NCBI GenBank assembly: GCA_041660565.1
Contig: JBAZWC010000001.1
Location: 174,481-238,480, forward strand
Reading direction: 5' to 3'
Source: Patescibacteria group bacterium
Lineage (GTDB): Bacteria; Patescibacteriota; UBA1384; CAJBMM01
DNA length: 64,000 bases
Shown: piece after piece, positions 2,078 to 59,608 of the stretch
How the letters are laid out: each line of letters starts with the position of its first letter
Position numbering within the stretch: position 1 is the stretch's first letter
Program-made: the position numbers and the translations under genes
Notes under the pieces: model-generated
Database searches by the model: none
What the model saw: the letters and a program-made list of their open reading frames with translations, nothing else
Told to the model about the DNA's origin: nothing

Positions 2078-2124
2078 TTTAAGATAAAGAAATTGCCGGC
2101 CAAGAGCATGCGCTCGAGGCCGGC
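2078..2124 (-). terminator. Hairpin plus T-rich tract ending the minus-strand small-peptide operon
   Basis: gccggcc-N16-ggccggc at 2095-2124. Followed on the minus strand by aatttctttatctt. Confidence 0.4.
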
Positions 2125-2131
2125 GAGAGGG

Positions 2132-2335
2132 CTAGTCTGGCATCGTCAGTTGCCGAACGATGAATCCTGCAGCAAAGACGATGATCAGCGACAAAACCAG
2201 TGTCAGATCACTGATGTAGTGACCGATCACCGCTCCCACGGTAAAGGCAACTAGTACTATCACGAACAGGGCGGTAGGAGACATCGCTAAGGCAATTCCC
2301 CCATCCCCCTGATCCTCGCCACGATCTTGGTCCAC
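2132..2335 (-). CDS. Small GC-rich transmembrane protein (67 aa)
   Basis: GTG start preceded by gggggaggtga SD. Hydrophobic helix-rich. Part of a GC-rich operon. Confidence 0.4.
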   Translation of the reverse strand: MDQDRGEDQGDGGIALAMSPTALFVIVLVAFTVGAVIGHYISDLTLVLSLIIVFAAGFIVRQLTMPD

Positions 2336-2379
2336 ACATCACCTCCCCCGTGATTAAATAGAACATCAGATTCGGTTCA

Positions 2380-2598
2380 TCACTTCGGCGTCGTATGCAC
2401 CGGATTGTCCTCATCGCGCGCCGTCATGCCGAGCCACCCGGCAACCGCCCCTACAACAAACAGTAACGTCGCCGGTCCGTACTTACTATGGCAAACGCAC
2501 ATGGCGCAGTTGATCCACGCCCCAACGCAGCCGATGCCAAACAACAGTCGCCAGTCACGAGCACGTATCGCGTCAACCTCACGCTTCAGTGGGTTCAT
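2380..2598 (-). CDS. Small GC-rich transmembrane protein (72 aa)
   Basis: ATG at 2598 preceded by gggaggtgat SD. TM segment LLFVVGAVAGWLGM. Confidence 0.45.
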   Translation of the reverse strand: MNPLKREVDAIRARDWRLLFGIGCVGAWINCAMCVCHSKYGPATLLFVVGAVAGWLGMTARDEDNPVHTTPK

Positions 2599-2599
2599 A

Positions 2600-2746
2600 T
2601 CACCTCCCTGTGATCGAGGTGAACAGTAGGAACGCGCCAGCGAGAAGGAATGCCGCTATGACGACGCAGATGGCGATCGTCGCCACGATCCATTTGGACA
2701 GGTCGCCAACGATTGCAAGGCCGGGGTCACTGCTCGAGCTTTGCAT
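2600..2746 (-). CDS. Small GC-rich transmembrane peptide (48 aa)
   Basis: ATG at 2746 preceded by gaaaggtga SD. Single TM helix IVATIAICVVIAAFLLAGAFLLF. The upstream part of the longer ORF has no SD. Confidence 0.4.
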   Translation of the reverse strand: MQSSSSDPGLAIVGDLSKWIVATIAICVVIAAFLLAGAFLLFTSITGR

Positions 2747-2931
2747 TGCGATCACCTTTCCACGTCCACATCGGTTCGTGGAGAACTGCTTGCTCCGGGT
2801 TAACCGGCACCCGGAATGGCGACTCCCCTGCCCGTACAATCGGGGCGGGGAGAAACATCACGATCATTACAGACATGACGCATAGCATCCGACAATCCCC
2901 TTTCGCACGTCAGGTTGTTGGACAATAGCTA

Positions 2932-2971
2932 TATTATACGCCAAAAGATGGACAATGTCCATCTTCGAAAG
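2932..2971 (-). promoter_or_regulatory. 40-bp direct-repeat unit 1 containing palindrome ATGGACAATGTCCAT plus an extended -10 on the minus strand
   Basis: tattatacgccaaaagatggacaatgtccatcttcgaaag. Minus strand reads ggcgTATAAT. 35/40 identical to the unit at 3920-3959. Confidence 0.5.
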
Positions 2972-3023
2972 AAAATCGGCGGTTACGCTTCTGCGCTCCG
3001 CCGACTTTATGGAATGAGGTGTG

Positions 3024-3836
3024 TCATGCTCCTGGATTCATGGTAACTACAACGAAGTCCCCTCTACTCGCGTTTGGAATGTCGTCCATCAATCGCGTAC
3101 TTCGATAGGCAGCTACGGACTTGACGTGAAATGACGAAAGCCCGACGCTAGAGGTGTAACTGGTGTCACGAGTCCCGTCGTCGCGGATTAAGCTAATTTT
3201 GCTGGTGATCTGCCCATCTACTATGCAAGCCACTACCCACGTGTCAGATGGATTGCGTTTTGGGTGTATGACGAAGTATATCTCACCCGCGACTTGGCCA
3301 GGGCTCATCGCACCGTTAATCGGCATCAACGGAGTACAACTCCCGTCCATCACATCTTGAGGTAAAAGCTCCCCAGCAGTCAAGCTCTCGCGGAAGCTTT
3401 TGTAAAACGCTGCAGTGCCGACGAATTTCCCGCCAACATCTGGTCCGACGTGATCTGACCGGGTATCAATGTGGTATCCGAGCTTGTCGTCGGTGCTATA
3501 ACTCAGTTCAGCCGGACTCCAACCACCCATGGTAGGGCCCTTAACCACTAGACCGTCGCCCGGTACGCCGAGCTTTATCTCCTGATCGGGCAATGATTCC
3601 CCGAGCAAGATGGGAAGCGTACGGTCTGGCTGATTTTGCACCGGTTCGGCCTGCTGGGGTTGGGCTACCTGAGTTGTTGGTTCGGCCTGAGACGGGGTTG
3701 GTGCTGTTGCCATGCTACTTGCCCCGCTGTACGAGCCTTCATTGCGTCGCACAACGGTAGTAATAATACCTAGCACTACAATGATCCCGACGACCACGCA
3801 GATCAGATTCACTGTGGTCTTCACTTCGTCTTGCAT
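3024..3836 (-). CDS. GC-rich membrane-anchored protein: N-terminal TM helix, Pro/Gln/Ala-rich linker, about 180-aa C-terminal domain of unknown function
   Basis: ATG at 3836 preceded by ggaggg SD. The listed ORF extends 11 codons further with no SD. TM segment LICVVVGIIVVLGIITTVV. Confidence 0.5.
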   Translation of the reverse strand: MQDEVKTTVNLICVVVGIIVVLGIITTVVRRNEGSYSGASSMATAPTPSQAEPTTQVAQPQQAEPVQNQPDRTLPILLGESLPDQEIKLGVPGDGLVVKGPTMGGWSPAELSYSTDDKLGYHIDTRSDHVGPDVGGKFVGTAAFYKSFRESLTAGELLPQDVMDGSCTPLMPINGAMSPGQVAGEIYFVIHPKRNPSDTWVVACIVDGQITSKISLIRDDGTRDTSYTSSVGLSSFHVKSVAAYRSTRLMDDIPNASRGDFVVVTMNPGA

Positions 3837-3919
3837 GGCTTGATCCCTCCATTGAGTTTGTGCGATCATCGGTCAAGCGACGTGTTAAAGTGCAACAGTA
3901 CGCCAGTGGTTGATGGATT

Positions 3920-3959
3920 TATTATACACAAAAAAATGGACAATGTCCTTCTTCGAAAT
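3920..3959 (-). promoter_or_regulatory. 40-bp direct-repeat unit 2 with palindrome ATGGACAATGTCC plus an extended -10 (tgtgTATAAT on the minus strand)
   Basis: tattatacacaaaaaaatggacaatgtccttcttcgaaat, upstream of the 3024-3836 gene. Confidence 0.5.
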
Positions 3960-3991
3960 TACAAATTTCGCGCTATCCCCTATTCGTATGG

Positions 3992-20561: not shown

Positions 20562-20783
20562 GAATTAAAATTCACCTCACCTTCGAATTTATAATGTAAT
20601 AATAACAGATCCGCAGGACTATGTCCAGCGTATCAGATGATGGAGAATTGAGGATGGATGATGGATTATTTTCTTGTTCGAGGAGTGAAACGACGAGAAC
20701 TATCTTTGTTTCCATCCTCTATCCTCCACCCTCCGATATAAAAATGAGGCGCCCCGCGATTACTCGCGAGACGCCCAGTGCGA

Positions 20784-21176
20784 TCAGGTACGCCTTGCCC
20801 ACGCGACCATGCAGTCGCAGGTGCAGAAGTTGGCGATAGGTCGGACTCGAGTGTCGTCAGGGTAGTACGCGACAACGGAAACGTGTGCAGCGGTAAAACT
20901 GATACGACCATCGCACTCAAGACACTTGACGAATCCGTTGGGGTAGCCATTGGGGTGTGGGTTTTCGTAAATCCCAAACCACACCGTCTGTGCAATGGTT
21001 GTTGTGTCACCCGGTCTTACGAGAAGATACCCGCGTATTGAATCGAGTGTCGTCAAGGTTCCTTTGGCTTCACCGGTAACGAGCCGTCGGAGCCTAGTGA
21101 GGCAGAATTCCTTCTCAGCCGGGCCCAACTCGCTGTCTGGGATGGCCGTGGGTCGGACACGATCTCTTCGCTTCAC
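20784..21176 (-). CDS. GC-rich hypothetical Cys-rich protein (about 130 aa)
   Basis: GTG start at 21176 preceded by aaagaggtga SD. CLECDGR and FCTCDC cysteine pairs. Third gene of a three-gene GC-rich operon. Confidence 0.5.
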   Translation of the reverse strand: MKRRDRVRPTAIPDSELGPAEKEFCLTRLRRLVTGEAKGTLTTLDSIRGYLLVRPGDTTTIAQTVWFGIYENPHPNGYPNGFVKCLECDGRISFTAAHVSVVAYYPDDTRVRPIANFCTCDCMVAWARRT

Positions 21177-21231
21177 AGTTGCTTCACCTCTTTTCGTTGA
21201 TGGTTGCCGCGAGCTCGCGAAACGCCCGTTG

Positions 21232-21624
21232 TCACAAACTCTCCTCGAGCATGTCTGGGATGGTGGCGGCAATCATCCTGTCCGCATCACGTTCCAGGTC
21301 ACTCAGCTCATCCAGAATATACTCTACCACCTGATGTGACAGAGACGCGTTCCGCGGATGGTCGTTTGCATATCTGGTGAGTAACCCTATCCTGGTCGCA
21401 AGTGACTGTGCGGCCAATAGCAGAGCCGCCACATCTGCAGCGCATCGATTGAACCGGCGCGGATGGGCTTGCCTTGACTCCCTGAGGCTGGTAGATAGGA
21501 ACTCAGGCAGAGTAACCTGGCACTGAGTTGCACTCCCATCTATGGCCATCCACGATCTGACCACAAGCTGTCCCGTGGTTTCGTCGTAACCGAATCCGTA
21601 TGACGATCGTACGTTTTCTGGCAC
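21232..21624 (-). CDS. GC-rich hypothetical protein (130 aa)
   Basis: GTG start preceded by aagagga SD. Middle gene of the operon. Confidence 0.5.
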   Translation of the reverse strand: MPENVRSSYGFGYDETTGQLVVRSWMAIDGSATQCQVTLPEFLSTSLRESRQAHPRRFNRCAADVAALLLAAQSLATRIGLLTRYANDHPRNASLSHQVVEYILDELSDLERDADRMIAATIPDMLEESL

Positions 21625-21660
21625 CTGTTTCCTCTTTCTACTGGGTGCTAATATGCTTCC

Positions 21661-21969
21661 CTAGCTCCCACTCCCCCTCATTCTCATATTCAGGTATTCT
21701 TGCCCTTCAACTCGAGTCATGAGAATGTGGCGGACGTAGCTGGAGAACGACGGCGTCAAGGCGCCCGCATCCAACGCCTCTTCTGATGGCCAGAAAGCGA
21801 ACTGGAAACCAGTAAACCTATCCCAAAGCTCATCGCCTCTGGCAGGTTCGGCAGTTAGAAACACTGCCACATCTTCGATTCCGAGCTCGTCGATGGTTTT
21901 GGCCAATTCTGTGGCGAGCAGCGTGTTTCCTTCCGACACCGCGGTCACATCAATCTGAGATACTGGCAC
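21661..21969 (-). CDS. GC-rich hypothetical acidic protein (102 aa)
   Basis: GTG start preceded by agaggtga SD. First gene of the operon. Confidence 0.5.
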   Translation of the reverse strand: MPVSQIDVTAVSEGNTLLATELAKTIDELGIEDVAVFLTAEPARGDELWDRFTGFQFAFWPSEEALDAGALTPSFSSYVRHILMTRVEGQEYLNMRMRGSGS

Positions 21970-22059
21970 TTAACTCACCTCTTTTCCGCCACGGAATGTT
22001 AGTCGTAGCTTTCAATCCACCTAAATGAACTAAAAGCCACGACCAAAAAATGTTAAGAT

Positions 22060-22102
22060 ACGAAAACGATAGTATTATATCATACTATCGTTTCGTGGTC
22101 AA
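22060..22102 (-). promoter_or_regulatory. Promoter (TTGACC-17-TATAAT with TGn) overlapped by a 15-bp-arm palindromic operator
   Basis: acgaaaacgatagta-ttatatca-tactatcgtttcgt (arms match except a 1-nt indel) centred on the -10. Plus-strand ggtcaa at 22097-22102 is the -35. Confidence 0.5.
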
Positions 22103-22143: not shown

Positions 22144-22151
22144 AGGGAGGT

Positions 22152-23495: not shown

Positions 23496-24146
23496 CTATT
23501 GATCTTGGGCAAGTTCTTCCACCATTCCGACATCGAATGTCGGGTTGGTATCCGCGTTGAACCAGACATAGAATCCGTAGCGGTCGAACCCTCCAACCGC
23601 AACGTGCTTATCCTTGGAAACCCCATGCCAACCCCAGTGATACCACTCGCCGAGTAGCCGCTCGTCATTGTGCACAATGCAGTTGGCGAAACAAACTGCT
23701 GTGACAACAGCTTCGTTTGCTCGCACAACACCCTTGGCGCAACGTTCAGGTTGATCTCCCCACCTATTCCTGGTGTGATTCCGGGCAAAGTTGAGCAAGT
23801 GATATCGCGGACTTCGCGATGAACATGCCCATTCATTCCCCGGCTTCAGCCACCATCTGTTTCGGTAGAAGTGTGGCTCTCGCTTTGCCCCATTAGTTCC
23901 GAAGAGCTGTCGCATGGCTGCAAGGGAAATGCCTGGATCGAACATCAACCGCCAATCCGCTTCGTTCTGCTGGTTTTGTCCGGCGCATTGCCGCAGTGTG
24001 TCAGCAGAGAAAAGAAGAAGGTCGATAGAACGCCCGAAATCCTCCTCCCCTAAAGCTTGCCGTGCTTGTTGCGCGGTTACAACCATTTCGCCACTAAGGA
24101 TCTCGATGGCCTCGTCGATATCAGTAACGTGAGTCATTCGCGTCAC
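23496..24146 (-). CDS. GC-rich hypothetical protein (216 aa), paralog of the 45943-46608 product
   Basis: aggggg SD. Shares ADTLRQC..DWRLM and NRWW..YHLLNF blocks with the other cassette protein. Confidence 0.5.
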   Translation of the reverse strand: MTRMTHVTDIDEAIEILSGEMVVTAQQARQALGEEDFGRSIDLLLFSADTLRQCAGQNQQNEADWRLMFDPGISLAAMRQLFGTNGAKREPHFYRNRWWLKPGNEWACSSRSPRYHLLNFARNHTRNRWGDQPERCAKGVVRANEAVVTAVCFANCIVHNDERLLGEWYHWGWHGVSKDKHVAVGGFDRYGFYVWFNADTNPTFDVGMVEELAQDQ

Positions 24147-24286
24147 CCCCCTGTCGTTGATCTGGCGAGTATTTTGTTTGGTGCTGAGGATATTGTAGCA
24201 GAATTTACATAAATAGATACTATCCTATCCGACTTTTAACTAATAACCCCATCAGATGAAATATCAGAAAAATCCTTCAATTTGGG

Positions 24287-30860: not shown

Positions 30861-31907
30861 ATCGAAGGGGCGAGGACGTTCTCTCGCCCCTTGTACCTTA
30901 CATCGAAAGGTGGTGATCTGGAGTTGAGCTATGGCTTACGACCAACCGAAGCGGCTGATTGGCTGATTCGCCGCTGTGAATTACCGCGGGAGTGGCGAGG
31001 TTACTTGGCCAGTGTAGTTGTTAAGCCGAGTAGCCAGTTTTACCACCAGTGGCAAATGCCGAAGAAAAACGGTGGATATCGGGTGATCCTGTCGCCGCTT
31101 GAACCACTGAAATCCGTTCAACGCCAGATTCTTCGCCACGTGCTGTGTGACCTAAGGATTTCGAGTGCGGCACACGGATTCGTAGGTGGTAGAGACATCA
31201 TTACTAATGCTCTACCCCATCTTCAGTCTCACTCCATGCTTGGTCTAGACTTGGCGGACGCATTTGGTAACGTCTGGCTTGGTTGGATGGCGTATCGTGA
31301 ATCGCCTAGGAAGACCACAGGACTAAAACTGGGTTTGCATCTGGACACTTGGCAGGCACTGTTGCCGTTTATCAGTTATGTGGACGATGATGACGGGATT
31401 CTGCCACAAGGCGCACCAACGTCGCCGGCGATTTTCAATGCAATGTGTTGTCGAATGGACACAATGCTGCTGAAACTTGCCAAAAACGTGGGCGGAGTGT
31501 ACACACGCTACGCCGACAACCTGACCTTTTCGATGCCAGGACCTTCAGTGGGGCAAAAGTTGATCAACGCAATCTTGCGTATTGTTGATGACGATGGTTT
31601 CCCACTGAATGATGACAAAACGCAACTACTACGCAGTGCCAACAACTTTAACCGGCCACTGCGCCTGCCAGGGCTGAACATCATTAATGGCCAACTAGTT
31701 CTGCCCGCCGACACACTAAAGCGCTTTCGTAGCGCTATGTACCGCGCTGGTCAGGACAGTTGCAGTGATGATGACGAAGTGCGCGATCATGCACGTCGAT
31801 CGCGTAGAGGCATCAAGGGATACGTCATTCGCATCTACGGCGAGTTGCCGCCACAACTACGTGGCATGTACGAAAAAGGACGCATACACGCGTCCGAAGA
31901 GACCTGA
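30858..31907 (+). CDS. Reverse transcriptase, retron-type (RT domain only, 349 aa), motif C reads YADN instead of YADD
   Basis: Motifs in order: KKNGGYRVI, ITNALPH (NAxxH), LGLDLADAFGNV, LPQGAPTSPAIFN, VYTRYADNLTF. GTG start. Alternative starts are possible. Confidence 0.75.
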   Translation: MIEGARTFSRPLYLTSKGGDLELSYGLRPTEAADWLIRRCELPREWRGYLASVVVKPSSQFYHQWQMPKKNGGYRVILSPLEPLKSVQRQILRHVLCDLRISSAAHGFVGGRDIITNALPHLQSHSMLGLDLADAFGNVWLGWMAYRESPRKTTGLKLGLHLDTWQALLPFISYVDDDDGILPQGAPTSPAIFNAMCCRMDTMLLKLAKNVGGVYTRYADNLTFSMPGPSVGQKLINAILRIVDDDGFPLNDDKTQLLRSANNFNRPLRLPGLNIINGQLVLPADTLKRFRSAMYRAGQDSCSDDDEVRDHARRSRRGIKGYVIRIYGELPPQLRGMYEKGRIHASEET

Positions 31908-31937
31908 TCCCCTACTGTCCGGACTGGGTGGTGGGGG

Positions 31938-33441: not shown

Positions 33442-33470
33442 TTGACATAAATATATTATCGGGGTAGAAT
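33442..33470 (+). promoter_or_regulatory. Promoter TTGACA-17-TAGAAT for the GC-rich cassette gene
   Basis: ttgacataaatatattatcggggtagaat, followed by a ggggggagga SD. Confidence 0.45.
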
Positions 33471-33511
33471 GTTCTTGCGTTATCACACGCTGGGGGGAGG
33501 ATATAACGGAA

Positions 33512-33949
33512 ATGAGGTTTCAGGAAACGGTCAAAATGCCGGTTCCAGAAGCGGTGACTATCCCACCGGTTTCCGGGTGGGCTGACATCGTACAGCACAG
33601 TGATAAGAGCATATGTCGCTTGTACCTGGCGGTGACTAGTGCTTCTGATGAGCCGGCAATGTGCGGCAAGGACGTTCTGTACAGGATGAGTCTCAATTGT
33701 AAGACGAGCCACTGTGCGGGCTCGGCGCATGCCGCCTGGCTTCTGGAATGCCCAGAGTCCCGGATTCCGGTTGAATGGCAGCAGGCTAAGCATCTCTTCT
33801 TCCTGAGGGAGGTGTGGGGAGATGAGCAGGGTTACTTGCATGTGTTGGTTGCCCAGCCTGAAGAAGCCGGGAAGTGGACCTTCGGCTATCTAGCCGACTT
33901 CGGCGCCGCCTTGATGGGTCCGCGCGATTGGGTGGTGATGATCGATTGA
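33512..33949 (+). CDS. GC-rich hypothetical protein (145 aa)
   Basis: ATG preceded by a ggggggagga SD. GC-rich coding between AT-rich flanks. Confidence 0.45.
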   Translation: MRFQETVKMPVPEAVTIPPVSGWADIVQHSDKSICRLYLAVTSASDEPAMCGKDVLYRMSLNCKTSHCAGSAHAAWLLECPESRIPVEWQQAKHLFFLREVWGDEQGYLHVLVAQPEEAGKWTFGYLADFGAALMGPRDWVVMID

Positions 33950-34022
33950 CGCCGCCCCTATCCCCCGTTCCGAGGACAACTTGGATCGGGGGAAACTATT
34001 TTTCAATGAATGAATATAAATA

Positions 34023-37907: not shown

Positions 37908-38126
37908 ATTTTTCTCCTCTTATATATGTATTATATCGCATATTAGCGTTTAAAAAAGCGGGCGATTGTCATCGTCCACTAACAGAAGTATATCAAAAGT
38001 ATCGACTCTTGTCAAACACTATCAGTTAAAGATGATGATATCTATGGCAAATATTTGTAAATAGTGGTATAATCATAATGTTCAGCTTAGCTGAAAGTAC
38101 ACTTCACAGAAGGGGGAGCGAAAATC

Positions 38127-38663
38127 GTGGCGATTGATGTTGAGCTCAATCCGTTGCTTTCCGACCCGTGTTATCGCGGGCGCGCAATGCGAATGGCGCG
38201 TCGGATTACGGGTAATCCAGACGACGCTGAGGATGTTGCTCAATGCGTGATGCTCAGGGCGTGGCGGGCAAATCCGCAGAATCTAAGGAGTCCAGAAGCG
38301 TGGATGACGTGTATCACTCGTCGTGTGGCACTCGATCGTATTCGCGCCAACAACAATCGGCGCAAGTATCTAGGCATTGCGGTCAGCTTGGATGAGGTGT
38401 GGGAAGGTAACGACACCCTCGTACGCCAGTTAGCGGACTTCACTCAAGATCCGGCGCAGATAATCGAAGACCGCGTAATCGACGATCGCCTACACAATGC
38501 CTTATTGGTGGTGCCGCAGATGTTTCGCGCGCCATTCACTATGCACGTTGTCGGCGGAATGTCATACGACGACATCGCCCAAAAGCTGGGTATCCCGATT
38601 GGAACGGTCAAGTCTCGTATCAATCGGGCGCGGACGATCTTGCGCGGACAGCTCAGCGCTTAG
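38127..38663 (+). CDS. ECF-type sigma-70 family sigma factor, GC-rich cassette
   Basis: Region 2 DAEDVAQCVMLRAWR and region 4 MSYDDIAQKLGIPIGTVKSRINRAR. GTG start preceded by gaaggggga SD. Extended -10 tggtataat upstream. Confidence 0.7.
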   Translation: MAIDVELNPLLSDPCYRGRAMRMARRITGNPDDAEDVAQCVMLRAWRANPQNLRSPEAWMTCITRRVALDRIRANNNRRKYLGIAVSLDEVWEGNDTLVRQLADFTQDPAQIIEDRVIDDRLHNALLVVPQMFRAPFTMHVVGGMSYDDIAQKLGIPIGTVKSRINRARTILRGQLSA

Positions 38664-38724
38664 TAGCCCTTTGCCGGAACATCGGCAAGGGGCTTCATTT
38701 TTGCAAATTTTCAACCTCGCAGAA

Positions 38725-45427: not shown

Positions 45428-45486
45428 ATTGTTATTATTATACTAGAAAATTTGTAAAAAGTATAGATTGAATCAAAAATATAAGA

Positions 45487-45512
45487 GGTAGGCGACAAGA
45501 TGTCGCCTACCC
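45487..45512 (-). terminator. Hairpin terminator for the 45530-45793 gene
   Basis: ggtaggcgac-aagat-gtcgcctacc 10-bp stem, followed on the minus strand by tcttatattttt. Confidence 0.45.
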
Positions 45513-45529
45513 TTGTGGCATGACAGTGA

Positions 45530-45793
45530 TCAGCTCCGAATTCGGCATCGATACCTCTTGGTTCGATCGATCTCCGTTGACTTCACCAGGCCATGCATCT
45601 CCGCGCACGATTTGGCCTGAAGGAATACCGGAAGATCCTCGAACTCAACGACACGAAGATTCATGACCGGCATGCTGCCCCTGCAGTACATATCCTCTAC
45701 TTCAGGGCCGTAATCGACGATTTCCTGTGGAACTATCACTAGCTCAACGATAGCGCCCTCGGGAATCCAATTCCCGCAATCTGCGTATGGCAT
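45530..45793 (-). CDS. GC-rich hypothetical protein (87 aa), divergent partner of the 45943-46608 gene
   Basis: ATG preceded by a caaaggagaacgacc SD. GC-rich codons. Confidence 0.5.
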   Translation of the reverse strand: MPYADCGNWIPEGAIVELVIVPQEIVDYGPEVEDMYCRGSMPVMNLRVVEFEDLPVFLQAKSCAEMHGLVKSTEIDRTKRYRCRIRS

Positions 45794-45873
45794 GGTCGTT
45801 CTCCTTTGCGAACAAACGACAGAGTAGTGTTAGCGCAATAATATTCTACCACATTGCGCCGAATATGTACATA

Positions 45874-45902
45874 TTGACACATGGCAACGATATCAGTATA
45901 AT
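45874..45902 (+). promoter_or_regulatory. Exact sigma70 consensus promoter TTGACA-17-TATAAT
   Basis: ttgacacatggcaacgatatcagtataat, followed by a ggaggggg SD and ATG at 45943. Confidence 0.55.
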
Positions 45903-45942
45903 TGTGGGGATGGTTTCCAATCTCATTTCGACGGAGGGGGCG

Positions 45943-46608
45943 ATGGGAGTAACATGCGATCGGGTTGACGAGGAAGGTGCAATCGCAATCCTCGGCGAGG
46001 ATAACGTTGTACTTCCTCGAATGTGTGGGGTTTCTGCAGACGCTGTGGTGGATATCCCGTTTACGGCTGACGCACTGCGCCGGTGCCAACAGGATAACCT
46101 GGGAGGATTATCTGACTGGCGGTTGGTGTGTGTGAGAGGCTACTCACTGCTTGAGATGGTCAAGGTATTCCGGGTTAGCACGACGGGGCGCGACTGCTTC
46201 GAAGGCTCCGAGGGGTACGACTGGTGGTTTCGGAAGTCGTGGGCAACGCGGTTGGGAGAGCCGGGCTACCATCTGATCGATTTCACCCTGCGATTCGGTG
46301 GGATGTGCCTGGACTCTCGGTGCAAGCGTATTTCGGAAATGAGCGGTGTTCATGTACCTGACACCGCCGAGCTATCCGAAGCGATGCTGAGAGCGGCTCG
46401 CTGTTCAAACCCCAGGCAGCTACCTCACGACCGAGAGCATGGTGAGTTTCACGTCGGCAGCTTTACCGTGCCGTTTGGCCCGAGTAGCGCGTTCAGGCGG
46501 GTGTGGAGCGGACTCAACATTAACGCTCGGTACGTCGTTACGGAAGAGGTTGGCATGGGGGTGTTCACAAACGTCGGGGTATACCTGGCGAAGGACCGCA
46601 ACTGCTGA
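45943..46608 (+). CDS. GC-rich hypothetical protein (about 221 aa), paralog of the 23496-24146 product
   Basis: ATG at 45943 after a GGAGGGGG SD. The listed longer ORF starts inside the promoter. Shared blocks ADALRRCQQDN..DWRLV and DWWFRK..YHLIDF. Confidence 0.55.
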   Translation: MGVTCDRVDEEGAIAILGEDNVVLPRMCGVSADAVVDIPFTADALRRCQQDNLGGLSDWRLVCVRGYSLLEMVKVFRVSTTGRDCFEGSEGYDWWFRKSWATRLGEPGYHLIDFTLRFGGMCLDSRCKRISEMSGVHVPDTAELSEAMLRAARCSNPRQLPHDREHGEFHVGSFTVPFGPSSAFRRVWSGLNINARYVVTEEVGMGVFTNVGVYLAKDRNC

Positions 46609-46680
46609 GACTGCAAGCGATAGGGCGACGGCTAACAAGCTGCCGCCCTAACATATATTCCAGATTGTCATGGTCATACC

Positions 46681-47584: not shown

Positions 47585-47613
47585 TTGCTTATTTGCGTAA
47601 AATTTTGTATAAT
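47585..47613 (+). promoter_or_regulatory. Promoter TTGCTT-17-TATAAT for the 47656-48006 cassette
   Basis: ttgcttatttgcgtaaaattttgtataat, then a ggggaggtga SD. Confidence 0.5.
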
Positions 47614-47655
47614 AGCGAAAGCGTATCATCTTGCTCATGGGGAGGTGAGAACAAA

Positions 47656-48006
47656 GTGTCAGATGAAGTGCGAATGGGTGTGCATCCTGATCCAGAGGTG
47701 CAGGCGGCAATTGTTGCACTGGAAGAGGCACTGGATGCAACTCGCCATATCTCGCGAGGGCATATTCTTACTGTCAATTGGGGCGATCGTGGTGGATTCG
47801 TCCTTGCGGCCGGAGGTCTGTGTCTTACGAGATATCAGCGAGTAACGTCACAATCGCTCGGAAACAGGCTGCACATTGCCGTCACTAGCCTAAACAACGC
47901 CATACTGGCCGATAGGAGTGCCACCGGGCGCGGTGCTGAGGTTGTTATCAAGCTGTCGAGTGGACAGGAGTACCGTTCGAGCAACGGTGTGACTTGCACC
48001 GGCTAG
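47656..48006 (+). CDS. GC-rich hypothetical protein (116 aa)
   Basis: GTG 7 nt after the GGAGGTGA SD. Gly/Ala-rich. Confidence 0.5.
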   Translation: MSDEVRMGVHPDPEVQAAIVALEEALDATRHISRGHILTVNWGDRGGFVLAAGGLCLTRYQRVTSQSLGNRLHIAVTSLNNAILADRSATGRGAEVVIKLSSGQEYRSSNGVTCTG

Positions 48007-48029
48007 TTGTTGATGGCAGGTTGGACTCG

Positions 48030-48062
48030 TGGCCGTCGGAAAGTTCGACGGCCATTCATTTT
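48030..48062 (+). terminator. Rho-independent terminator
   Basis: tggccgtcg-gaaagtt-cgacggcca 9-bp stem followed by ttcatttt. Confidence 0.5.
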
Positions 48063-48077
48063 ACATATTTTTAGTTA

Positions 48078-48108
48078 GTTCAGGTAATAAACTATTTCCG
48101 GTCATATC
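48078..48108. repeat. Left copy of an about 30-bp direct repeat duplicating the last codons of gpmI (pseudo C-terminus MTGNSLLPELTKNM* on the minus strand)
   Basis: ttcaggtaataaactatttccggtcatatcc versus 49228-49258 ttcgggtaataaactatttccggtcatatcg. 26-bp exact core. Confidence 0.55.
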
Positions 48109-48153
48109 CGGTCATAATATTCGGGGTCTAATTTGGTTTAGCCGTGGCGCATC

Positions 48154-48182
48154 TTGACATATCTCAAAATATATGCTACAAT
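48154..48182 (+). promoter_or_regulatory. Sigma70 consensus promoter TTGACA-17-TACAAT for the 48506-48937 cassette
   Basis: ttgacatatctcaaaatatatgctacaat. Same 17-nt -10 block as the SLT promoter at 24287. Confidence 0.5.
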
Positions 48183-48505
48183 ACAGTATAACAATTAGGC
48201 TAGGCTCAAACTTAATCTAATCGTGACTGGACATTAACAACTATATATACCGCCTCAAGAGAGGATAAATCGTGCACAAGCATCGTGTAACGCTTTGTTC
48301 TCTCTCGAGGCGGTAACTCCCGCCCGAACGGCCGTGGCAGGTTGAATAAGTTTCATTCTGACGCCGAATGCTACGGGGAATGCCCTTTAAGGGCCACTAG
48401 GACGGGAGCATGTGGCGCTCCCAAATCCGATTTCATCCAGAATCTCTGGGAAAGCGGAATCACACGCCACAATCAGTTTTTCAGCCCCTGGGAGGGGGCA
48501 AAATA

Positions 48506-48937
48506 GTGGAAACGAAAACCCTGGCGAACGCAGTTGACGAGTTCGCCGAAATGGCGGCACGAGCAAGCGCGCCGCCTGTAGTGAAACCCGAGCCGATCTG
48601 GCTTGTGTGCCTCGAGTCCATGTTCGGCAGCGCCGCAATCGGCACCGCCGAGATCGTCGAGCGACTCCGGGCGGAGTTCTCTGTCCGGGAGCTGGACTTC
48701 AGAGGCACGTGCCGTGGGTGTACCCCCGACGTGTCGTTTAGCGAGGGATACTACTCCACTGTGCACGGTGAGATGGAGTACTACCGGTGGAGTACCCTTC
48801 GAATCGGCGACGAAGTCGATTACGACGGCCGCACATGGGTCGTCGTTCACAATGTGGGGAAGAGTGGCAACATGTGCTGCCCCGCCACTCACAAGCTAGT
48901 TCTTGTCCCTGTCGATGAACTCCATGGCAGGGCCTAG
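48506..48937 (+). CDS. GC-rich hypothetical Cys-containing protein (143 aa)
   Basis: GTG 8 nt after a gggaggggg SD. The listed ORF extends to ATG 48410 without a comparable SD. A roughly 320-nt structured leader precedes it. Confidence 0.5.
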   Translation: METKTLANAVDEFAEMAARASAPPVVKPEPIWLVCLESMFGSAAIGTAEIVERLRAEFSVRELDFRGTCRGCTPDVSFSEGYYSTVHGEMEYYRWSTLRIGDEVDYDGRTWVVVHNVGKSGNMCCPATHKLVLVPVDELHGRA

Positions 48938-49028
48938 GCACCCCGAGGGAGGACGGCAGTACGCCGTCCCCCTCCTATCCCAGAATTCACTAGTTCTCTA
49001 ATGAATTGTGGTGGTGGGAATAGATTAA

Positions 49029-49068
49029 AAACAAACAACCCTGTCTAATTTGACAGGGTTGTTTGTTT
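49029..49068. terminator. Strong bidirectional hairpin terminator (17-bp stem) between cassette I and gpmI
   Basis: aaacaaacaaccctgtc-taattt-gacagggttgtttgttt, with T-rich sequence on both sides. Confidence 0.55.
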
Positions 49069-49138
49069 ATCTGAGCCCAATATTCTTGTTAGATGAGATG
49101 AACGGGACGATAACTGTATCCTAACGGTTCATGCTAAC

Positions 49139-49205
49139 GGGAGGACATCCTCCTTCGCGCAAGGCTACGGGAGGACATGTGAGTCCTCCCCTACGTAGGT
49201 CGTAA
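49139..49205. repeat. GC-rich tandem-hairpin repeat, copy b
   Basis: gggaggacatcctcc ... cgggaggacatgtgagtcctcccctacgtaggtcgtaa. Confidence 0.5.
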
Positions 49206-49213
49206 AACCCAAT

Positions 49214-50836
49214 TTAACTTTTTGTGAGTTCGGGTAATAAACTATTTCCGGTCATATCGGCCGGTTTGGGTAGGCCTAGAAGCTCCAGAACCGTTGGAGC
49301 AACGTCTGCCAGCGTGTGCTCGGATTGCATAATATCAGCTAAAATATTTTGTTGATCCGGGGTTGTAGCGGGAGCAGATAAAGTGTGATCTCGGCTAATC
49401 ATAATAAACGGCACCGGATTAACTGTGTGCATAGTTTCAGTTTTTTGATCTCGATGGAGACCGATCATTTGTTCTGCATGACCATGATCAGCGGTAATTA
49501 ACACTACATTATTTTGATTTAAGGCCAGCTCAATTACCCGTTTTACCTGTTTATCAATCACTTGAACGGCAACCGAGGTGGCGGTGATGTCACCGGTATG
49601 GCCGACCATATCTACATTGGCGTAATTTGCCACAATAAATTGATACTTTTGCTCTTTCATATTTGCCAGTAACTTGTTGGTCATTGGCTCCGCCGACATT
49701 TCCGGCGCCTGATTATAAGTAACCACATCTGGCGATGGCACAATAATGCGGTCTTCACCCGGATACGGTTCTTCGCGGCCACCGTTAAAAAAGAAGGTAA
49801 CGTGAGCATATTTCTCACTTTCGGCAATGTGGAATTGCTTGAATCCGGCCTCAGAAATAAGTTTACCAAGGGTGTTTTGAATTTGGATTGGCTCAAAAAG
49901 TACCGGCATTGGAACTGGCAAACGATAGCTGGTAATTCCGGCGTAAAAGATATTTTTGGGTGGTTTAAAAAATAATCCCAATTTTTGTTCACCCAGAAAT
50001 ACCTTGGCCAATTGTCTAGACCTGTCGGCGCGGAAGTTAAAACAAACAACAGCATCGTTATCGTGGACCGTGTAAATCTGGTTATTATCAGTAATTACGC
50101 ATGATGGGAAAAATTCATCCTCAAACCCTTTGCGATACATAGTTGATATCGCTTGCTCAGCTGTTGGAAATCTTTCACCAATTCCATCTACCATCGCTTT
50201 ATACGCTACGGCTGTTCTGGACCAATGGTTGTCTCTGTCTAGCGAATAAAACCGACCGACAATCGAGGCAATTTTACCCAGATTATTAGTCTTTAATTTG
50301 TTCTCTAATTGGCTAATAAAATTAAATGCCGAGGTGGTGCCGCTGTCACGACCATCAAGAGTGATATGAAAATAAGTTTTAGTGATGTTATTCTTTTTGG
50401 CGAAATCGGCTAACGCAAGAGCGTGATCGATGTGTGAGTGCACGCCACCATCTGATAGCAAGCCGTAGATATGTAGCGCTGAATCATATTTTTTGATTTG
50501 CTCATTAATTTTTAACAACGTTGGATTGTTCATAAACGATCCGTCATTGATAGAATTTCCAATGCGAGTCATATCTTGAAACACCACTCTACCGGTGCCG
50601 ATACTAGAGTGCCCGATCTCGGAGTTCCCTACTTTTCCACTTGGTCCGACCACCTTTTTGAATGCTTGCAAAATTGTATGAGGATATGTGCGCCAATACA
50701 AATTCATAATGTCGGGGTTGTTCATAGTGATGGCGTTGCCGCCCCAACTAGGACTAATCCCCCATCCATCTAAAATTAGCAATACAACTGATTGGGCTGT
50801 TTTTGGATTGTTTGGCATATAATTATTATATATCAA
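49214..50836 (-). CDS. gpmI: 2,3-bisphosphoglycerate-independent phosphoglycerate mutase
   Basis: LLILDGWGISPSWGGNAI N-terminal metalloenzyme motif, 540 aa. Confidence 0.85.
   Translation of the reverse strand: MIYNNYMPNNPKTAQSVVLLILDGWGISPSWGGNAITMNNPDIMNLYWRTYPHTILQAFKKVVGPSGKVGNSEIGHSSIGTGRVVFQDMTRIGNSINDGSFMNNPTLLKINEQIKKYDSALHIYGLLSDGGVHSHIDHALALADFAKKNNITKTYFHITLDGRDSGTTSAFNFISQLENKLKTNNLGKIASIVGRFYSLDRDNHWSRTAVAYKAMVDGIGERFPTAEQAISTMYRKGFEDEFFPSCVITDNNQIYTVHDNDAVVCFNFRADRSRQLAKVFLGEQKLGLFFKPPKNIFYAGITSYRLPVPMPVLFEPIQIQNTLGKLISEAGFKQFHIAESEKYAHVTFFFNGGREEPYPGEDRIIVPSPDVVTYNQAPEMSAEPMTNKLLANMKEQKYQFIVANYANVDMVGHTGDITATSVAVQVIDKQVKRVIELALNQNNVVLITADHGHAEQMIGLHRDQKTETMHTVNPVPFIMISRDHTLSAPATTPDQQNILADIMQSEHTLADVAPTVLELLGLPKPADMTGNSLLPELTKS
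49228..49258. repeat. Right copy of the about 30-bp direct repeat (the authentic 3' end of gpmI)
   Basis: Encodes DMTGNSLLPELTKS* on the minus strand. Confidence 0.55.
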
Positions 50837-53601: not shown

Positions 53602-53629
53602 TTGTAAAATTGCCGTTTTCTGGTATAAT
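53602..53629 (+). promoter_or_regulatory. Promoter TTGTAA-16-TATAAT with TGn extended -10
   Basis: ttgtaaaattgccgttttctggtataat, then a gggaggag SD. Confidence 0.45.
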
Positions 53630-53673
53630 TTGGACTAGTCATAGCACCACCACAACTTAACTCCCGGGAGGAG

Positions 53674-54510
53674 ATGATGGAAACGGTTAGGCCGCATCGC
53701 GAAATCTGCGTCACCGGTACAAAAACGATCGATCAGCTTTTCAAGGTCGCCGCTGAGTTTGTAAAGGCTCGGGCGGTTCGCGCATGTGCTACATCGAGCT
53801 TGATCGATCAAAGACTCGTAATTGGCGTGTTAGCCAGCTCAAAGACATTGCGGGGTCTGGCAAACCACTGGCCAATGCGGTATCCACGATGCGACACACT
53901 GAAGAGGTTGTTTGCCCTGGGCTGTCATGCTGCTGAAATGCGGTTGCATCTGAACATCTCTGACACGGATCGGCTGGTAGAGGAAGTCGAGTTGGCACAT
54001 TGGATGTGCGGCGAAAGGCTGTCCGGTATCCAGCTGAATATGTGCTGGCCGCCGGAGTACTTGCTCACGGAGCTGCACCGGAGGCGGCCGGAAACGGATC
54101 TGCTGTTGCAGATTGGCGCGAACGCGTTACTCGAGTTCGAGGCGACGCATGGTGGCGCCATCCCGTTCTATGACGTTAAATGCATTGTTGCCCGTGTTGG
54201 GCAGTACGGCTCCAGCATTAATCGGGTATTGCTTGACCCGAGTGGTGGTTGCGGCGTCCCGATGAATGTGGACCGCCTGCGACCGGTTGTCGAGGGGTTG
54301 AACCACGCATTCCCCAACCTAGGCATCGGAGTTGCCGGTGGGCTGTGCGCCGAGACACTGCTGTCCATCGCGCCGCTGATCGAAGCCTGTCCAACGCTGA
54401 GCATCGATGCCGAGGGGCGTCTGCGCAATCCGGACACCGACGAGCTGGATATGGGCCGTGTCGAAGGCTATCTGACCGCAGCTTTCGACCTGTTCTACCC
54501 TCAAGCGTGA
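53674..54510 (+). CDS. GC-rich TIM-barrel protein resembling phosphoribosylanthranilate isomerase (TrpF-like)
   Basis: N-terminal REICVTGT resembles KICGIT. LLDPSGGCG and IGVAGGLCAETLLSI align with TrpF GGtG and lAGGLnpeNV blocks. The match was made by eye. Confidence 0.45.
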   Translation: MMETVRPHREICVTGTKTIDQLFKVAAEFVKARAVRACATSSLIDQRLVIGVLASSKTLRGLANHWPMRYPRCDTLKRLFALGCHAAEMRLHLNISDTDRLVEEVELAHWMCGERLSGIQLNMCWPPEYLLTELHRRRPETDLLLQIGANALLEFEATHGGAIPFYDVKCIVARVGQYGSSINRVLLDPSGGCGVPMNVDRLRPVVEGLNHAFPNLGIGVAGGLCAETLLSIAPLIEACPTLSIDAEGRLRNPDTDELDMGRVEGYLTAAFDLFYPQA

Positions 54511-54520
54511 TCAACACACT

Positions 54521-54556
54521 GCCGCCTTGCCCGGTTCGGGTAAGGCGGCTTAAATT
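54521..54556 (+). terminator. Rho-independent terminator
   Basis: gccgcctt-gcccggttcgggt-aaggcggc followed by ttaaatttat. Confidence 0.55.
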
Positions 54557-57910: not shown

Positions 57911-57930
57911 TTCAAGCCCCTTAAGGTAAT

Positions 57931-58152
57931 TTATTTATCTGTTTTAGGTGCGGTTTCAGTGGCGGCCGGGGTGGCTTCAACTTTCGCTACTACCTGTTTG
58001 CCGCGATATTGACCACAATTTTCGCAAACAGCATGAGATTGTCTAGGCGCGTGACAGTTTGGGCAAAACATTACTGTAGGCAGAGTTGCACTTAGCTGGC
58101 TGCGTCTGGTGCCTGAGCGCATGTGCGACATTCGTTTTTTTGGCATTGCCAT
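57931..58152 (-). CDS. rpmF: 50S ribosomal protein L32
   Basis: MAMPKKRMSHMRSGTRRSQ L32 N-terminus, C-terminal CxxC..CxxC zinc ribbon. Confidence 0.8.
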   Translation of the reverse strand: MAMPKKRMSHMRSGTRRSQLSATLPTVMFCPNCHAPRQSHAVCENCGQYRGKQVVAKVEATPAATETAPKTDK

Positions 58153-58194
58153 GGTGTTATTCCTTTTCTTCTATATTACATGATTTTGGTTATT

Positions 58195-58683
58195 TTAGCT
58201 AGTTTTGTGAGTGTGATTTGGGTTGCTATTTAGGTCTATGCCGCATTCGGGGCAAAGTCCGCGGCAATCTGTTTTACATACTGGATATTCAGTCAGATCC
58301 AAGGCGGTTGTATCAATGATAGCTTGTGTTAGGTTAATAGTATCATCGCTATGAATTTGATAATTTAGGTCATCGTTATTGCGGCTATATTCATATTGAT
58401 CCGATGAGTCAATTTTTTGTTCAATCTCTTTTTGACATTTGATACAAACAGTTTGATAACTTGTCGTTGTTGCTAATGAAAGATCGAGCACTGGATAATT
58501 ATTCGTCCACTCGAGGTTGACACCAATTGGGCCAATTAAATCCAATCCAACCAATTTCGAACCAATTAATTGGTTGATCTCAATCTGATCAGCCGCACTC
58601 TCACCCTTTGGCAAGCGAGTAAACTGGTTGATGTGATAATGTTCTAATGATTGTTTTACCATAATACCGATATTATAACACAA
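58195..58683 (-). CDS. YceD/DUF177-family protein
   Basis: Located upstream of rpmF as in many bacteria. C-terminal CKTDCRGLCPECG cysteines. Confidence 0.65.
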   Translation of the reverse strand: MCYNIGIMVKQSLEHYHINQFTRLPKGESAADQIEINQLIGSKLVGLDLIGPIGVNLEWTNNYPVLDLSLATTTSYQTVCIKCQKEIEQKIDSSDQYEYSRNNDDLNYQIHSDDTINLTQAIIDTTALDLTEYPVCKTDCRGLCPECGIDLNSNPNHTHKTS

Positions 58684-58718
58684 AATATTCTATTATTACA
58701 ATAGTAACTCAAAAAATA

Positions 58719-58747
58719 TAGACAAGAGTATAATAATCATATATAAT
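58719..58747 (+). promoter_or_regulatory. Promoter TAGACA-17-TATAAT
   Basis: tagacaagagtataataatcatatataat, then an agggag SD. Confidence 0.45.
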
Positions 58748-58787
58748 ATCATCAGCATTTCACGGCTACGTCTCAAGGGAGAAATGA

Positions 58788-59564
58788 GTGCGACAATACA
58801 TCGAAGTGGTTGGGATTTCGTCCGTCGAAGAGGCGCACTGCGTTGTGGAGCATTATCACAACGCACGACCAATTGGTTCGGAGATTATTCTGAGGCTTGG
58901 AATAGTGGCAAAACCTAACTTGGTTGGTGTCCAGCGAGACGAGCAGATCACCCATGCCGTCTGCAACCAGTGCTTGTGTTGGTCCGATGTTGACGTGTGC
59001 ATGCACTGGTACGATCAAACCGGGGCGCCTACCGACCTGATGGCAGTCGTTACCGGTACGTACGCGGTTGCAGGGTTCAACCTCAGTCATTTGCAACTCG
59101 ACATACCTGAACTTCCTGACCCGGGTTTGCTAGGTACTGCGGTTCACGCGACGCGCAGCAATGGCTTACGGGTGGTGCTGTCACTTGGCTGTAATCAGCT
59201 GTTAGACAATGGGTACGACAGCGATGAGCCCGACTACGGCCCGTTGATAGAACGTCTGTCTGAATATGCGACCGATGGTTATGTTGACCAGCTAGTGATA
59301 AAGCCCGGGTGGCTCGGAAACAAAGTAAACCTACGTTTACTGATACAGGCTGTTCGGGAGCTATATCCACGGTGGGGTGTCACCATATTCGACGGGCTTG
59401 TATTACCGACCGCGATAGGTGAGGTCAGAGAGCTTGCCATGGAGTTCGGCGGTGTCTCTGTCTCCGCGCACCATCAGCTGTTTGCCTGTCCGGGAGGCCC
59501 GGAGCTGTCAGAAACGCGGGTATTGTGCTTTATCCAGGAGGGGTTGCGTGTTCTGGGCACCTAG
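58788..59564 (+). CDS. GC-rich TrpF-like TIM-barrel paralog (258 aa), related to the 53674-54510 product
   Basis: IEVVGISSVEEAH N-terminus. KPGWLGNKVN and FDGLVLPTAIGEV align with the PSGGCG and VAGGLCAE blocks of the other cassette protein. Confidence 0.45.
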   Translation: MRQYIEVVGISSVEEAHCVVEHYHNARPIGSEIILRLGIVAKPNLVGVQRDEQITHAVCNQCLCWSDVDVCMHWYDQTGAPTDLMAVVTGTYAVAGFNLSHLQLDIPELPDPGLLGTAVHATRSNGLRVVLSLGCNQLLDNGYDSDEPDYGPLIERLSEYATDGYVDQLVIKPGWLGNKVNLRLLIQAVRELYPRWGVTIFDGLVLPTAIGEVRELAMEFGGVSVSAHHQLFACPGGPELSETRVLCFIQEGLRVLGT

Positions 59565-59579
59565 TCGTTACGTCCAATT

Positions 59580-59608
59580 CGCCGCGAGGATTCTACTCGC
59601 GGCGTTTT
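59580..59608 (+). terminator. Rho-independent terminator
   Basis: cgccgcgag-gattcta-ctcgcggcg 9-bp stem followed by tttt. Confidence 0.6.

Follow-up and report, generated by a model that had tools for sequence, protein, structure and literature searches.

Composition and gene content of the window

The stretch of DNA considered here, a 64-kb window of contig JBAZWC010000001.1 from a metagenome-assembled genome (MAG) of the Patescibacteria, carries its genes within the locus tags WC773_00840 to WC773_01140, and eleven compact GC-rich loci, referred to below as islands I1 to I11, are scattered among them (Table 1). The remaining genes form a backbone of housekeeping functions, which includes SecD, FtsZ, FtsA, MreB, NusA, RsgA, LeuRS, a Clp ATPase, a UvrD/PD-(D/E)XK helicase-nuclease, enolase, PGI, two iPGM paralogs, sortase, LexA, RNase III, NusB and L32. 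By PGI, the closest matches in GTDB are to a MAG of Candidatus Saccharibacteria (54% identity) and to a bacterium without classification (50%), and on the strength of these matches the organism is assigned to a Saccharibacteria-related bacterium of the Candidate Phyla Radiation (CPR), with a genome that is moderately, not strongly, AT-rich. Overall GC content is 44.2% for the window and about 42-43% for the backbone. An earlier note on this DNA, made from the sequence alone, had described GC-rich gene units dispersed through an AT-rich genome; the backbone is indeed the AT-richer part, but only moderately so.

The compositional contrast itself is pronounced. In 400-nt windows, GC content rises from approximately 0.36-0.47 in the backbone to 0.52-0.61 at every position where the earlier note had placed a GC-rich block. 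The GC-rich set comprises 11 loci with 13 transcription units, which together occupy approximately 11 kb (17%) of the window and have a GC content of 0.51-0.59. GC content at third codon positions (GC3) lies between 0.52 and 0.73 in 14 island open reading frames (ORFs; mean 0.605) and between 0.30 and 0.48 in 47 backbone ORFs (mean 0.411, sd 0.046), so that the two ranges do not overlap (Mann-Whitney p = 1.8e-8), and the sliding-window and codon comparison that had been proposed thus revealed a real difference. Codon choice differs accordingly between islands and backbone, with fractions of 0.32 vs 0.13 for CTG (of Leu codons), 0.21 vs 0.09 for CGG and 0.06 vs 0.30 for TTA. In island proteins, Cys is 3.3 times and Arg and Trp are each 2.0 times as frequent as in backbone proteins, while Lys and Ile occur at only 0.36 and 0.54 times their backbone frequency. 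The orientation of the islands is random, unlike that of the backbone, with 8 island genes on the + strand and 6 on the - strand, compared to 10 and 37 backbone genes, respectively (Fisher p = 0.018).

Table 1. Positions of the GC-rich islands and of associated features in the window (TM, transmembrane; RT, reverse transcriptase; ECF, extracytoplasmic function; aa, amino acids)
Feature	Position	Strand	Content
I1	2050..3960	-	two tandem units, GC 0.51-0.59
I1 unit a	3024-3869	-	281-aa membrane-anchored protein
I1 unit b	2100-2925	-	short TM-peptide ORFs only; no long ORF in 2100-2900
I1 promoter/operator module	3913-3958 and 2925-2970		duplicated, 46 nt
I2	20747..22102	-	three-ORF operon (21661-21969, 21232-21624, 20784-21272), GC3 0.58-0.60; terminator 20747-20776
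I3	23496..24250	-	216-aa protein (ORF 23496-24146) of the uncharacterised A3 family; paralog of 45943-46608
I4	30700..31937	+	retron-type RT 30858-31907 (349 aa); structured RNA region of approximately 170 nt upstream
I5	33442..34000	+	145-aa orphan ORF 33512-33949; TTGACA-17-TAGAAT promoter; terminator
I6	38044..38694	+	stand-alone ECF sigma factor 38127-38663 (178 aa); terminator 38665-38694
I7	45486..46650	divergent pair	45530-45793 (-, 87 aa) and 45943-46608 (+, 221 aa, A3-family paralog); divergent promoters 45794-45942
I8	47600..48055	+	116-aa orphan ORF 47656-48006; terminator 48029-48055
I9	48069..49258	+	promoter 48154-48182; 323-nt structured leader 48188-48510; 143-aa ORF 48506-48937; hairpins
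I9 direct repeat	48069-48108 and 49219-49258		40 nt
I10	53602..54549	+	277-aa PRAI/TrpF-like TIM-barrel protein 53677-54510
I11	58719..59604	+	258-aa divergent paralog of the I10 protein, 58788-59564
tRNA-Leu	45343-45427		
iPGM gene	49214-50836	-	one of two tandem paralogs (49214-52443)
GIY-YIG mini-elements	28602-29018 and 40749-41128		approximately 400 bp each, AT-rich
Solo hairpins of mini-element type	6886-6923, 22125-22160 and 24350-24387		intergenic
Second hairpin family	31977-32014, 49168-49205, 63646-63672 and 63673-63710		GC-rich

Anatomy of the islands

The units resemble one another in layout. A sigma70-like promoter scoring at least 9.5/12 occurs within 150 nt upstream in 10 of the 13 units. 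Several of these score 11-12/12, namely TTGACA-17-TATAAT (45874), TTGACC-17-TATAAT with a TG (22102, I2), TTGACA-17-TAGAAT (33442) and TAGACA-17-TATAAT (58719). Three units (23496, 48506 and the RT with its RNA region) have weaker -35 elements. The -10 element is located 40-53 nt before the start codon in most promoter-bearing units. Since backbone genes make use of the same consensus, for instance at 46681, 38015, 22637 and 24287, the characterization of the island promoters as host-style was a fair one. Shine-Dalgarno sequences are GGAGG-like and GTG starts are frequent (7 of 13 units), and a hairpin of -20 to -29 kcal/mol follows 11 of the 13 units, both also in agreement with the earlier description. 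Weaker terminators are found after unit I1b, where the hairpin reaches only -10.6 kcal/mol, and unit I7b, where it lacks a T-run.

Palindromic operators are predicted to overlap some of the promoters. In I1, the two units share a duplicated promoter/operator module whose copies are 85% identical and contain the palindrome AAGATGGACATTGTCCATCTT, while the I2 promoter is overlapped by a 12+12 palindrome, AAACGATAGTATGATATAATACTATCGTTT. The two I7 genes share an internal AT-rich promoter region. The remaining contents that had been listed for the units, namely a retron-type RT, an ECF sigma factor, two paralog pairs and small TM peptides, were likewise recovered. Apart from the RT and the sigma factor, the island proteins have no match in PHROGs, PADLOC, Pfam or NCBIfam, the I1 proteins included, bar a weak PADLOC match of 21232-21624 to JetA (E = 0.0036). 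It was also considered whether the islands might be structured non-coding RNAs (ncRNAs) and not genes. This was rejected for most of them, given their homolog families and high-confidence folds, and Rfam finds only the tRNA-Leu in the window.

The layout raises the question of whether the islands might, as had been suggested, form a single dispersed, co-regulated system; a regulon of the island ECF sigma factor or of one repressor would be an example. The sequence GTATAAT is present in 7 of 13 island upstream regions, which account for half of its 14 copies in the window, the two I1 units have a duplicated operator in common and leader lengths are uniform at 40-53 nt. Nonetheless, a comparison of the promoter motifs yielded no operator or motif common to the islands beyond the general extended -10 element, which the backbone also uses. 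The palindromes differ from one island to the next, the promoters are of the sigma70 type and not of the ECF type, and the gene contents are functionally unrelated. A common regulatory system is thus considered very unlikely.

Absence from relatives and signs of insertion

Within the 39-54 kb part of the window, synteny can be compared with three distant relatives (L006, L007 and L008), whose backbone proteins are about 50-88% identical to those of the window at the amino acid level, with values of 81-89% for MreB and 62-71% for iPGM. In these contigs the homolog of the gene at 43403 adjoins the sortase gene, the PGI gene and the two iPGM genes are contiguous, and none of the islands of the window is present. 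I7, I8 and I9 are missing from the syntenic positions and I10 is also absent beside PGI. Between sortase and PGI, L007 and L008 have other genes, whose GC content is ordinary. None of approximately 53 genes in the three relatives has a GC3 above 0.59, and the standard deviation of GC content in 800-nt windows is 0.021-0.029, compared to 0.044 in the window. Moreover, a search of approximately 15 billion proteins with nine island proteins detected no relative with at least 90% identity outside this MAG.

I9 is flanked by a 40-nt direct repeat, as had been noticed earlier, in which 37 of 40 positions agree and a 26-nt core is exact. The right copy coincides with the last codons, at the 3' end, of the iPGM gene, an arrangement that looks like the typical trace of an insertion at a gene's 3' end. 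I7, in turn, lies 59 nt from the tRNA-Leu gene. The absence of the islands from relatives, the I9 repeat, the adjacency to the tRNA gene, the random orientation and the lack of close relatives together support horizontal acquisition, and the view that these blocks are the accessory part of the window is supported with moderate confidence. The leader of I9 is itself a conspicuous feature, with a predicted folding energy of -121 kcal/mol (z = -5.79) and a hairpin of approximately 68 nt at 48248-48315; no Rfam family was found above noise for it.

Since the sequence comes from a MAG and a compositional mosaic is the very signal that chimeras produce, an assembly chimera or binning contamination has to be considered as well. 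Two Logan contigs (L001 and L004, from SRR18595301) are, however, 100% identical to the window over 4.3 and 17.2 kb, the longer of them, L004, spanning five island loci together with both flanks, and an NCBI/JGI MAG contig of 516,109 bp carries the same proteins. Each island is only 0.5-1.9 kb long and embedded between backbone genes. As independent assemblies are identical across the junctions of islands and backbone, an artefact of this kind is hardly credible.

Two paralogous protein families

The I3 protein and its I7 paralog share 30% identity (blastp E = 5e-9) and belong to the A3 family, for which 236 representative clusters were found with a mid-GC amino acid make-up (median GARP/FYMINK residue ratio of 1.03). 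The AlphaFold2 model of the I3 protein has a pLDDT of 94 and only weak matches in the PDB, to C-type-lectin-like domains (best E = 0.026), so that the fold of the family is possibly C-type-lectin-like.

The second pair consists of the proteins encoded by 53677-54510 (I10) and 58788-59564 (I11), which are related with an hhalign probability of 96.9% (E = 1.5e-10; hmmsearch 4.2e-9). In the I11 protein the motifs of the family are degenerate, with LLDPSGG replaced by VIKPGWLG and DAEGRLR by SAHHQLF. For the I10 protein, referred to below as the 53677 protein, 233 homologs were found, the best non-self identity being 44%, and all named homologs are from Patescibacteria (Parcubacteria, Uhrbacteria, Wildermuthbacteria) with the exception of one partial protein labelled as Chloroflexi. 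The AlphaFold2 model (pLDDT 94.5) matches TrpF and DUF1341 in Foldseek with E-values of approximately 1e-8, and a PDB profile match to 4aaj was also obtained (E = 0.015). The family thus resembles the phosphate-binding TIM barrels of the TrpF/PRAI and DUF1341 type in its predicted (beta/alpha)8 barrel, and its motifs LLDPSGGxG and GVAGGL resemble the phosphate-binding loops of TrpF. It differs from them in that the sequences are only 11-15% identical, neither Pfam nor NCBIfam assigns the protein to a family, a tryptophan-pathway context is lacking, the family is spread over Patescibacteria and phages, and the second copy in the window is devoid of the motifs. Both families are uncharacterised and, as candidates for recurrent transfer, the PRAI-like TIM barrel and the possibly C-type-lectin-like protein are flagged here.

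Homologs of the 53677 protein are also present in seven IMG/VR contigs (GC content 0.44-0.71), three of which (L018, L019 and L022) are 98-163 kb long with a GC content of 0.69-0.71. Two that were checked look phage-like, L022 encoding RecT and L018 an R2K ATP-grasp protein and a DHHA1 protein, with most ORFs lacking a Pfam match. A further homolog is found in LR745208.1 (L016), a 485-kb GenBank entry labelled 'uncultured phage'. These occurrences indicate that the family is common to CPR bacteria and huge phages. In a neighbour-joining tree, the window protein is sister to a long subfamily from other low-to-mid-GC contigs of putative Patescibacteria type, and not to the high-GC viral clade.

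A homolog of one or the other family constitutes the local GC maximum in five of seven other CPR contigs (binomial P = 3e-5). The GC content of the gene and of its background is 0.554 vs 0.427 in L011, 0.539 vs 0.477 in L012, 0.580 vs 0.492 in L003, 0.558 vs 0.507 in L002 and 0.599 vs 0.451 in L015, the last being an A3-family homolog with a GC3 of 0.77. In L014 (background 0.55), L023 and all seven viral contigs the homolog matches its surroundings, with gene GC contents of 0.43-0.73. A fixed GC content of the 53677 family in every genome could be rejected because the copies in L023 and in the viral contigs track the background, and the families thus have no GC content intrinsic to them. That they turn up repeatedly in Patescibacteria of lower GC content, as single genes of foreign composition, suggests that both have been transferred again and again from GC-richer members of a common pool and have then ameliorated. 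One of these contigs, L003 (Logan SRR34572458, 1-20840), is more mosaic than the window itself: 12 of its 22 genes have a GC3 of 0.63-0.76 and the rest of 0.33-0.53, the GC-rich set including ROK-family and DUF5680 genes beside the PRAI-like homolog.

The same data bear on an explanation that requires no transfer, in which resident genes would have been raised in GC content in place by selection on mRNA or codons or by GC-biased gene conversion. That the two families are GC-rich local maxima in five of seven contigs despite identities of 30-44%, that the 53677 protein of the window groups with a low-to-mid-GC subfamily, and that the rise in GC content begins directly downstream of the -10 element and stops at the terminator would all fit this explanation. 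There is, however, no universal compositional constraint, since the 53677 family tracks its background in L014, L023 and the seven viral contigs, with gene GC contents from 0.43 to 0.73, and backbone genes which are likely to be highly expressed (FtsZ, enolase, NusA and L32) have a low GC3 of 0.39-0.45. An increase in GC3 of 0.2 is also far larger than the effects reported for gene conversion. Taking into account, in addition, the absence of the islands from syntenic relatives and the presence of an att-like repeat, a rise in place is considered unlikely.

Source of the islands

The earlier note had favoured repeated acquisition from a high-GC donor, with an actinobacterial host of an episymbiont as an example, followed by capture of host promoters. 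There are several reasons to consider such a donor. Cultivated Saccharibacteria live on Actinobacteria, and the closest GTDB match of the window is to a MAG from that group. Island proteins have GARP/FYMINK ratios of 1.0-2.3, compared to a backbone median of 0.73, and their Arg/Lys ratio of 3.3 and the GC content at second codon positions, which implies a donor of approximately 69% GC, point in the same direction. The weak matches of the sigma factor include Ilumatobacteraceae, Acidimicrobiia and plasmids of Prescottella and Pseudonocardia. On the other hand, none of the 233 homologs of the 53677 protein is labelled as actinobacterial and the A3-family matches are mid-GC in make-up. The best non-self matches of the sigma factor are just 33-39% identical and comprise Actinomycetota, Flavobacteriales and unlabelled sequences, and the RT is at most 38% identical to its best labelled matches, which are scattered over phyla (Methylobacterium, Clostridium, Bacteroides, Listeria), so that no relative above 39% identity was found for either protein. 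For neither family, nor for the sigma factor and the RT, did the closest homologs place the source in Actinomycetota.

Composition is less clear-cut. The pooled island GC3 is 0.60 and, together with the pooled value for first codon positions, implies a donor of approximately 54-55% GC, against the 69% implied by second positions; typical Actinomyces-type genomes have a GC3 of 0.85 or more, above the island range. A TTGACA/TATAAT promoter with an AT-rich spacer is not the usual actinobacterial style either. Such promoters are situated inside the islands, in the divergent promoter region of I7 and the second promoter/operator copy of I1, which argues that they arrived with the modules and makes their capture from the host doubtful. 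An actinobacterial host as donor is therefore not supported by the sequence comparisons and is judged to be quite unlikely.

Probable horizontal acquisition of the islets

The GC-rich blocks are probably horizontally acquired accessory islets, for which the donor pool would most likely be other Patescibacteria, their phages or both, and not an actinobacterial host. The compositional contrast, the anatomy of the units, their absence from syntenic relatives, one att-like duplication and the taxonomic spread of two families were observed directly; horizontal transfer as the cause, the composition of the donor and the route of insertion are inferred. In the scheme proposed, each islet would be a module of one to three genes, complete from promoter to terminator and placed between housekeeping genes, having originated in one or several genomes of higher GC content, roughly 55-60%. 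The modules would by now be partly ameliorated, with a GC3 of approximately 0.60 against 0.41 in the backbone and proteins that retain a high content of Arg and a low content of Lys and Ile. Because the units come with sigma70-type promoters of their own, in several cases combined with palindromic operators, they may be expressed and regulated independently. Entry could have taken place by natural transformation or by site-specific insertion.

Recurrent transfer of this kind agrees with a survey of 125 aquifer Patescibacteria genomes, in which up to 13% of genome length was attributed to horizontal gene transfer (HGT) and 83% of single-gene transfers took place within Patescibacteria (PMC12455944). 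The window in this respect adds a further case to a feature that is already known, the HGT islets or 'alien genes' of the Lawrence-Ochman amelioration framework and of Patescibacteria (PMC12455944), and not a new kind of system. Like those, its units are sharply unlike the host core in composition, scattered between core genes, missing from relatives and accessory or unknown in function, one of them lying beside a tRNA gene and another within a flanking direct repeat, and exchange within Patescibacteria is the dominant route reported for such islets. They differ in being GC-richer than the host, in their organization as tiny modules of 0.5-1.9 kb with a consensus promoter and a terminator of their own, and in that neither an integrase or transposase nor a donor was found. 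A resemblance to integron gene cassettes can also be noted, as the units are compact, mostly single-ORF and mobile-looking, have accessory or unknown functions and in some cases are followed by imperfect palindromes. Unlike such cassettes, they are dispersed over 57 kb in mixed orientation with their own promoters and do not form a tandem array; no intI or attC was seen in the window, nor was any integrase present among the ORFs scanned.

Several observations weigh against acquisition of the islets from a Patescibacteria or phage pool. The comparison of presence and absence takes in three distant relatives only, and only the 39-54 kb part of the window. Only one of the 11 islands, I9, is flanked by repeats; I9 and the tRNA-adjacent I7 aside, the other nine have no flanking repeat of at least 11 nt. 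Among the ORFs scanned, none in or beside the islands encodes an integrase, a transposase or another mobility protein. A donor was found for none of the islands, as even the best non-self matches are just 30-44% identical, and seven island ORFs lie outside the homology evidence from large databases. The bias at second codon positions and in Arg/Lys is stronger than GC3 suggests, which would leave room for an older donor of much higher GC content. Finally, an accessory set which is wholly GC-rich is atypical and not fully explained, since genes gained by transfer tend to be AT-richer than the genome that receives them. Nothing specific was found in the literature on GC-rich islands in Saccharibacteria.

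How the tiny genomes of Patescibacteria gain functions bears on their adaptation to hosts. If the islets were acquired as proposed, 17% of the window would be recently gained accessory DNA in the form of minimal self-expressing modules, and the pool from which it was drawn seems to be common to other Patescibacteria and huge phages and not to the presumed host. The window would then provide a clean case in which to study how a reduced genome gains genes and how these ameliorate.

Hairpin repeats and GIY-YIG mini-elements

Two types of repeated hairpin, TGTCATTCC and GTCCKCCCCTAC, have copies at islet borders. Two AT-rich mini-elements each contain a stand-alone gene for a GIY-YIG nuclease of approximately 100 aa (Pfam PF01541), the two proteins being 70% identical, and end in terminal inverted repeats of 38-41 nt which are themselves hairpins (TGTCATTCCGG...CCGGAATCTATA). 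The layout is like that of a REPtron, with a GIY-YIG nuclease in place of the REP-associated tyrosine transposase (RAYT; REP, repetitive extragenic palindrome). Solo hairpins of the same type occur at three intergenic positions, with 7 cores in all where 0.5 would be expected, and two of the solo copies adjoin the promoters of I2 and I3. A second, GC-rich hairpin family with the consensus CGGGMGGACAyrTGrGTCCKCCCCTAC has 4 copies, compared to 0.2 expected; two are located at the 3' borders of I4 and I9 and the other two are back-to-back after LeuRS.

A further-reaching possibility would be that the islets are drawn from a separate, GC-rich pool of single-gene modules, each running from promoter to terminator, which is exchanged among Patescibacteria and huge phages. 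Insertion would then need no classical integrase and might occur at breaks at REP-like hairpins linked to the GIY-YIG elements, or by natural transformation. If true, this would explain why single genes of the same families form GC-rich islands in several CPR genomes that are not related to one another, why the islands are GC-rich in place of the usual AT-rich composition, and why hairpin copies are found at four island borders. We regard it as speculative, with a rather small chance of being correct.

Retron-type reverse transcriptase and ECF sigma factor

The RT of I4 matches PADLOC RT_XIII (E = 5.9e-59) and many other retron RT models, whereas its score of 141 bits against the NCBIfam retron St85 RT (E = 3.9e-41) is below the 235-bit cutoff. 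Its profile matches place it in the retron clade. The 171 nt upstream of the gene have a predicted folding energy of -65.9 kcal/mol (z = -4.58 vs shuffled sequence) with a long-range closing helix, and no Rfam match was obtained for this region. Compared to retrons such as Ec86 or those of PADLOC type XIII, which consist of an RT, an msr/msd ncRNA and an effector, the window RT is similar in scoring best on retron RT profiles, in keeping the NAxxH motif and in having the structured RNA region directly upstream. It is dissimilar in its score below the NCBIfam cutoff, in the missing Rfam retron match of the upstream RNA and in two motifs, as motif C is YADN (TAC GCC GAC AAC, 31509-31520) and not YADD, and the VTG triplet of retrons is LPG. 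In addition, no effector gene is present beside it: upstream lies a backbone gene in divergent orientation, and downstream a terminator and a convergent aminoacyl-tRNA synthetase-like gene. It is therefore probably a solo and degenerate, or possibly degenerating, retron accompanied by its putative ncRNA, and the enzyme may be inactive or repurposed. A diversity-generating retroelement in which the RT would target the possibly C-type-lectin-like paralogs was also considered and rejected, as no repeat resembling a template and variable repeat pair is present in the window and the RT is of the retron type.

The product of 38127-38663 is classed as an ECF sigma factor from its predicted domains, which are sigma70 regions 2 and 4 only (Pfam Sigma70_r2, 8e-15; r4_2, 8e-14), with a TIGR02937 score of 68.4 bits against a cutoff of 42.9. 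The unit is monocistronic, and no adjacent or co-transcribed anti-sigma gene was found at I6.

Strand asymmetry and the iPGM paralogs

The + strand of the whole window is G- and T-rich, the cumulative GC skew rising from 0 to approximately 7 while AT skew is mostly negative. Given that 79% of the backbone genes are on the - strand, the coding strands are C- and A-rich at four-fold sites (C 0.288 vs G 0.198), and the strand preference of the backbone is opposite to the preference for the leading strand that genes usually show. The tandem iPGM paralogs beside PGI are 45% identical, and because the same arrangement is kept in the relatives L005-L008, the pair appears to be an old duplication maintained in a reduced genome.

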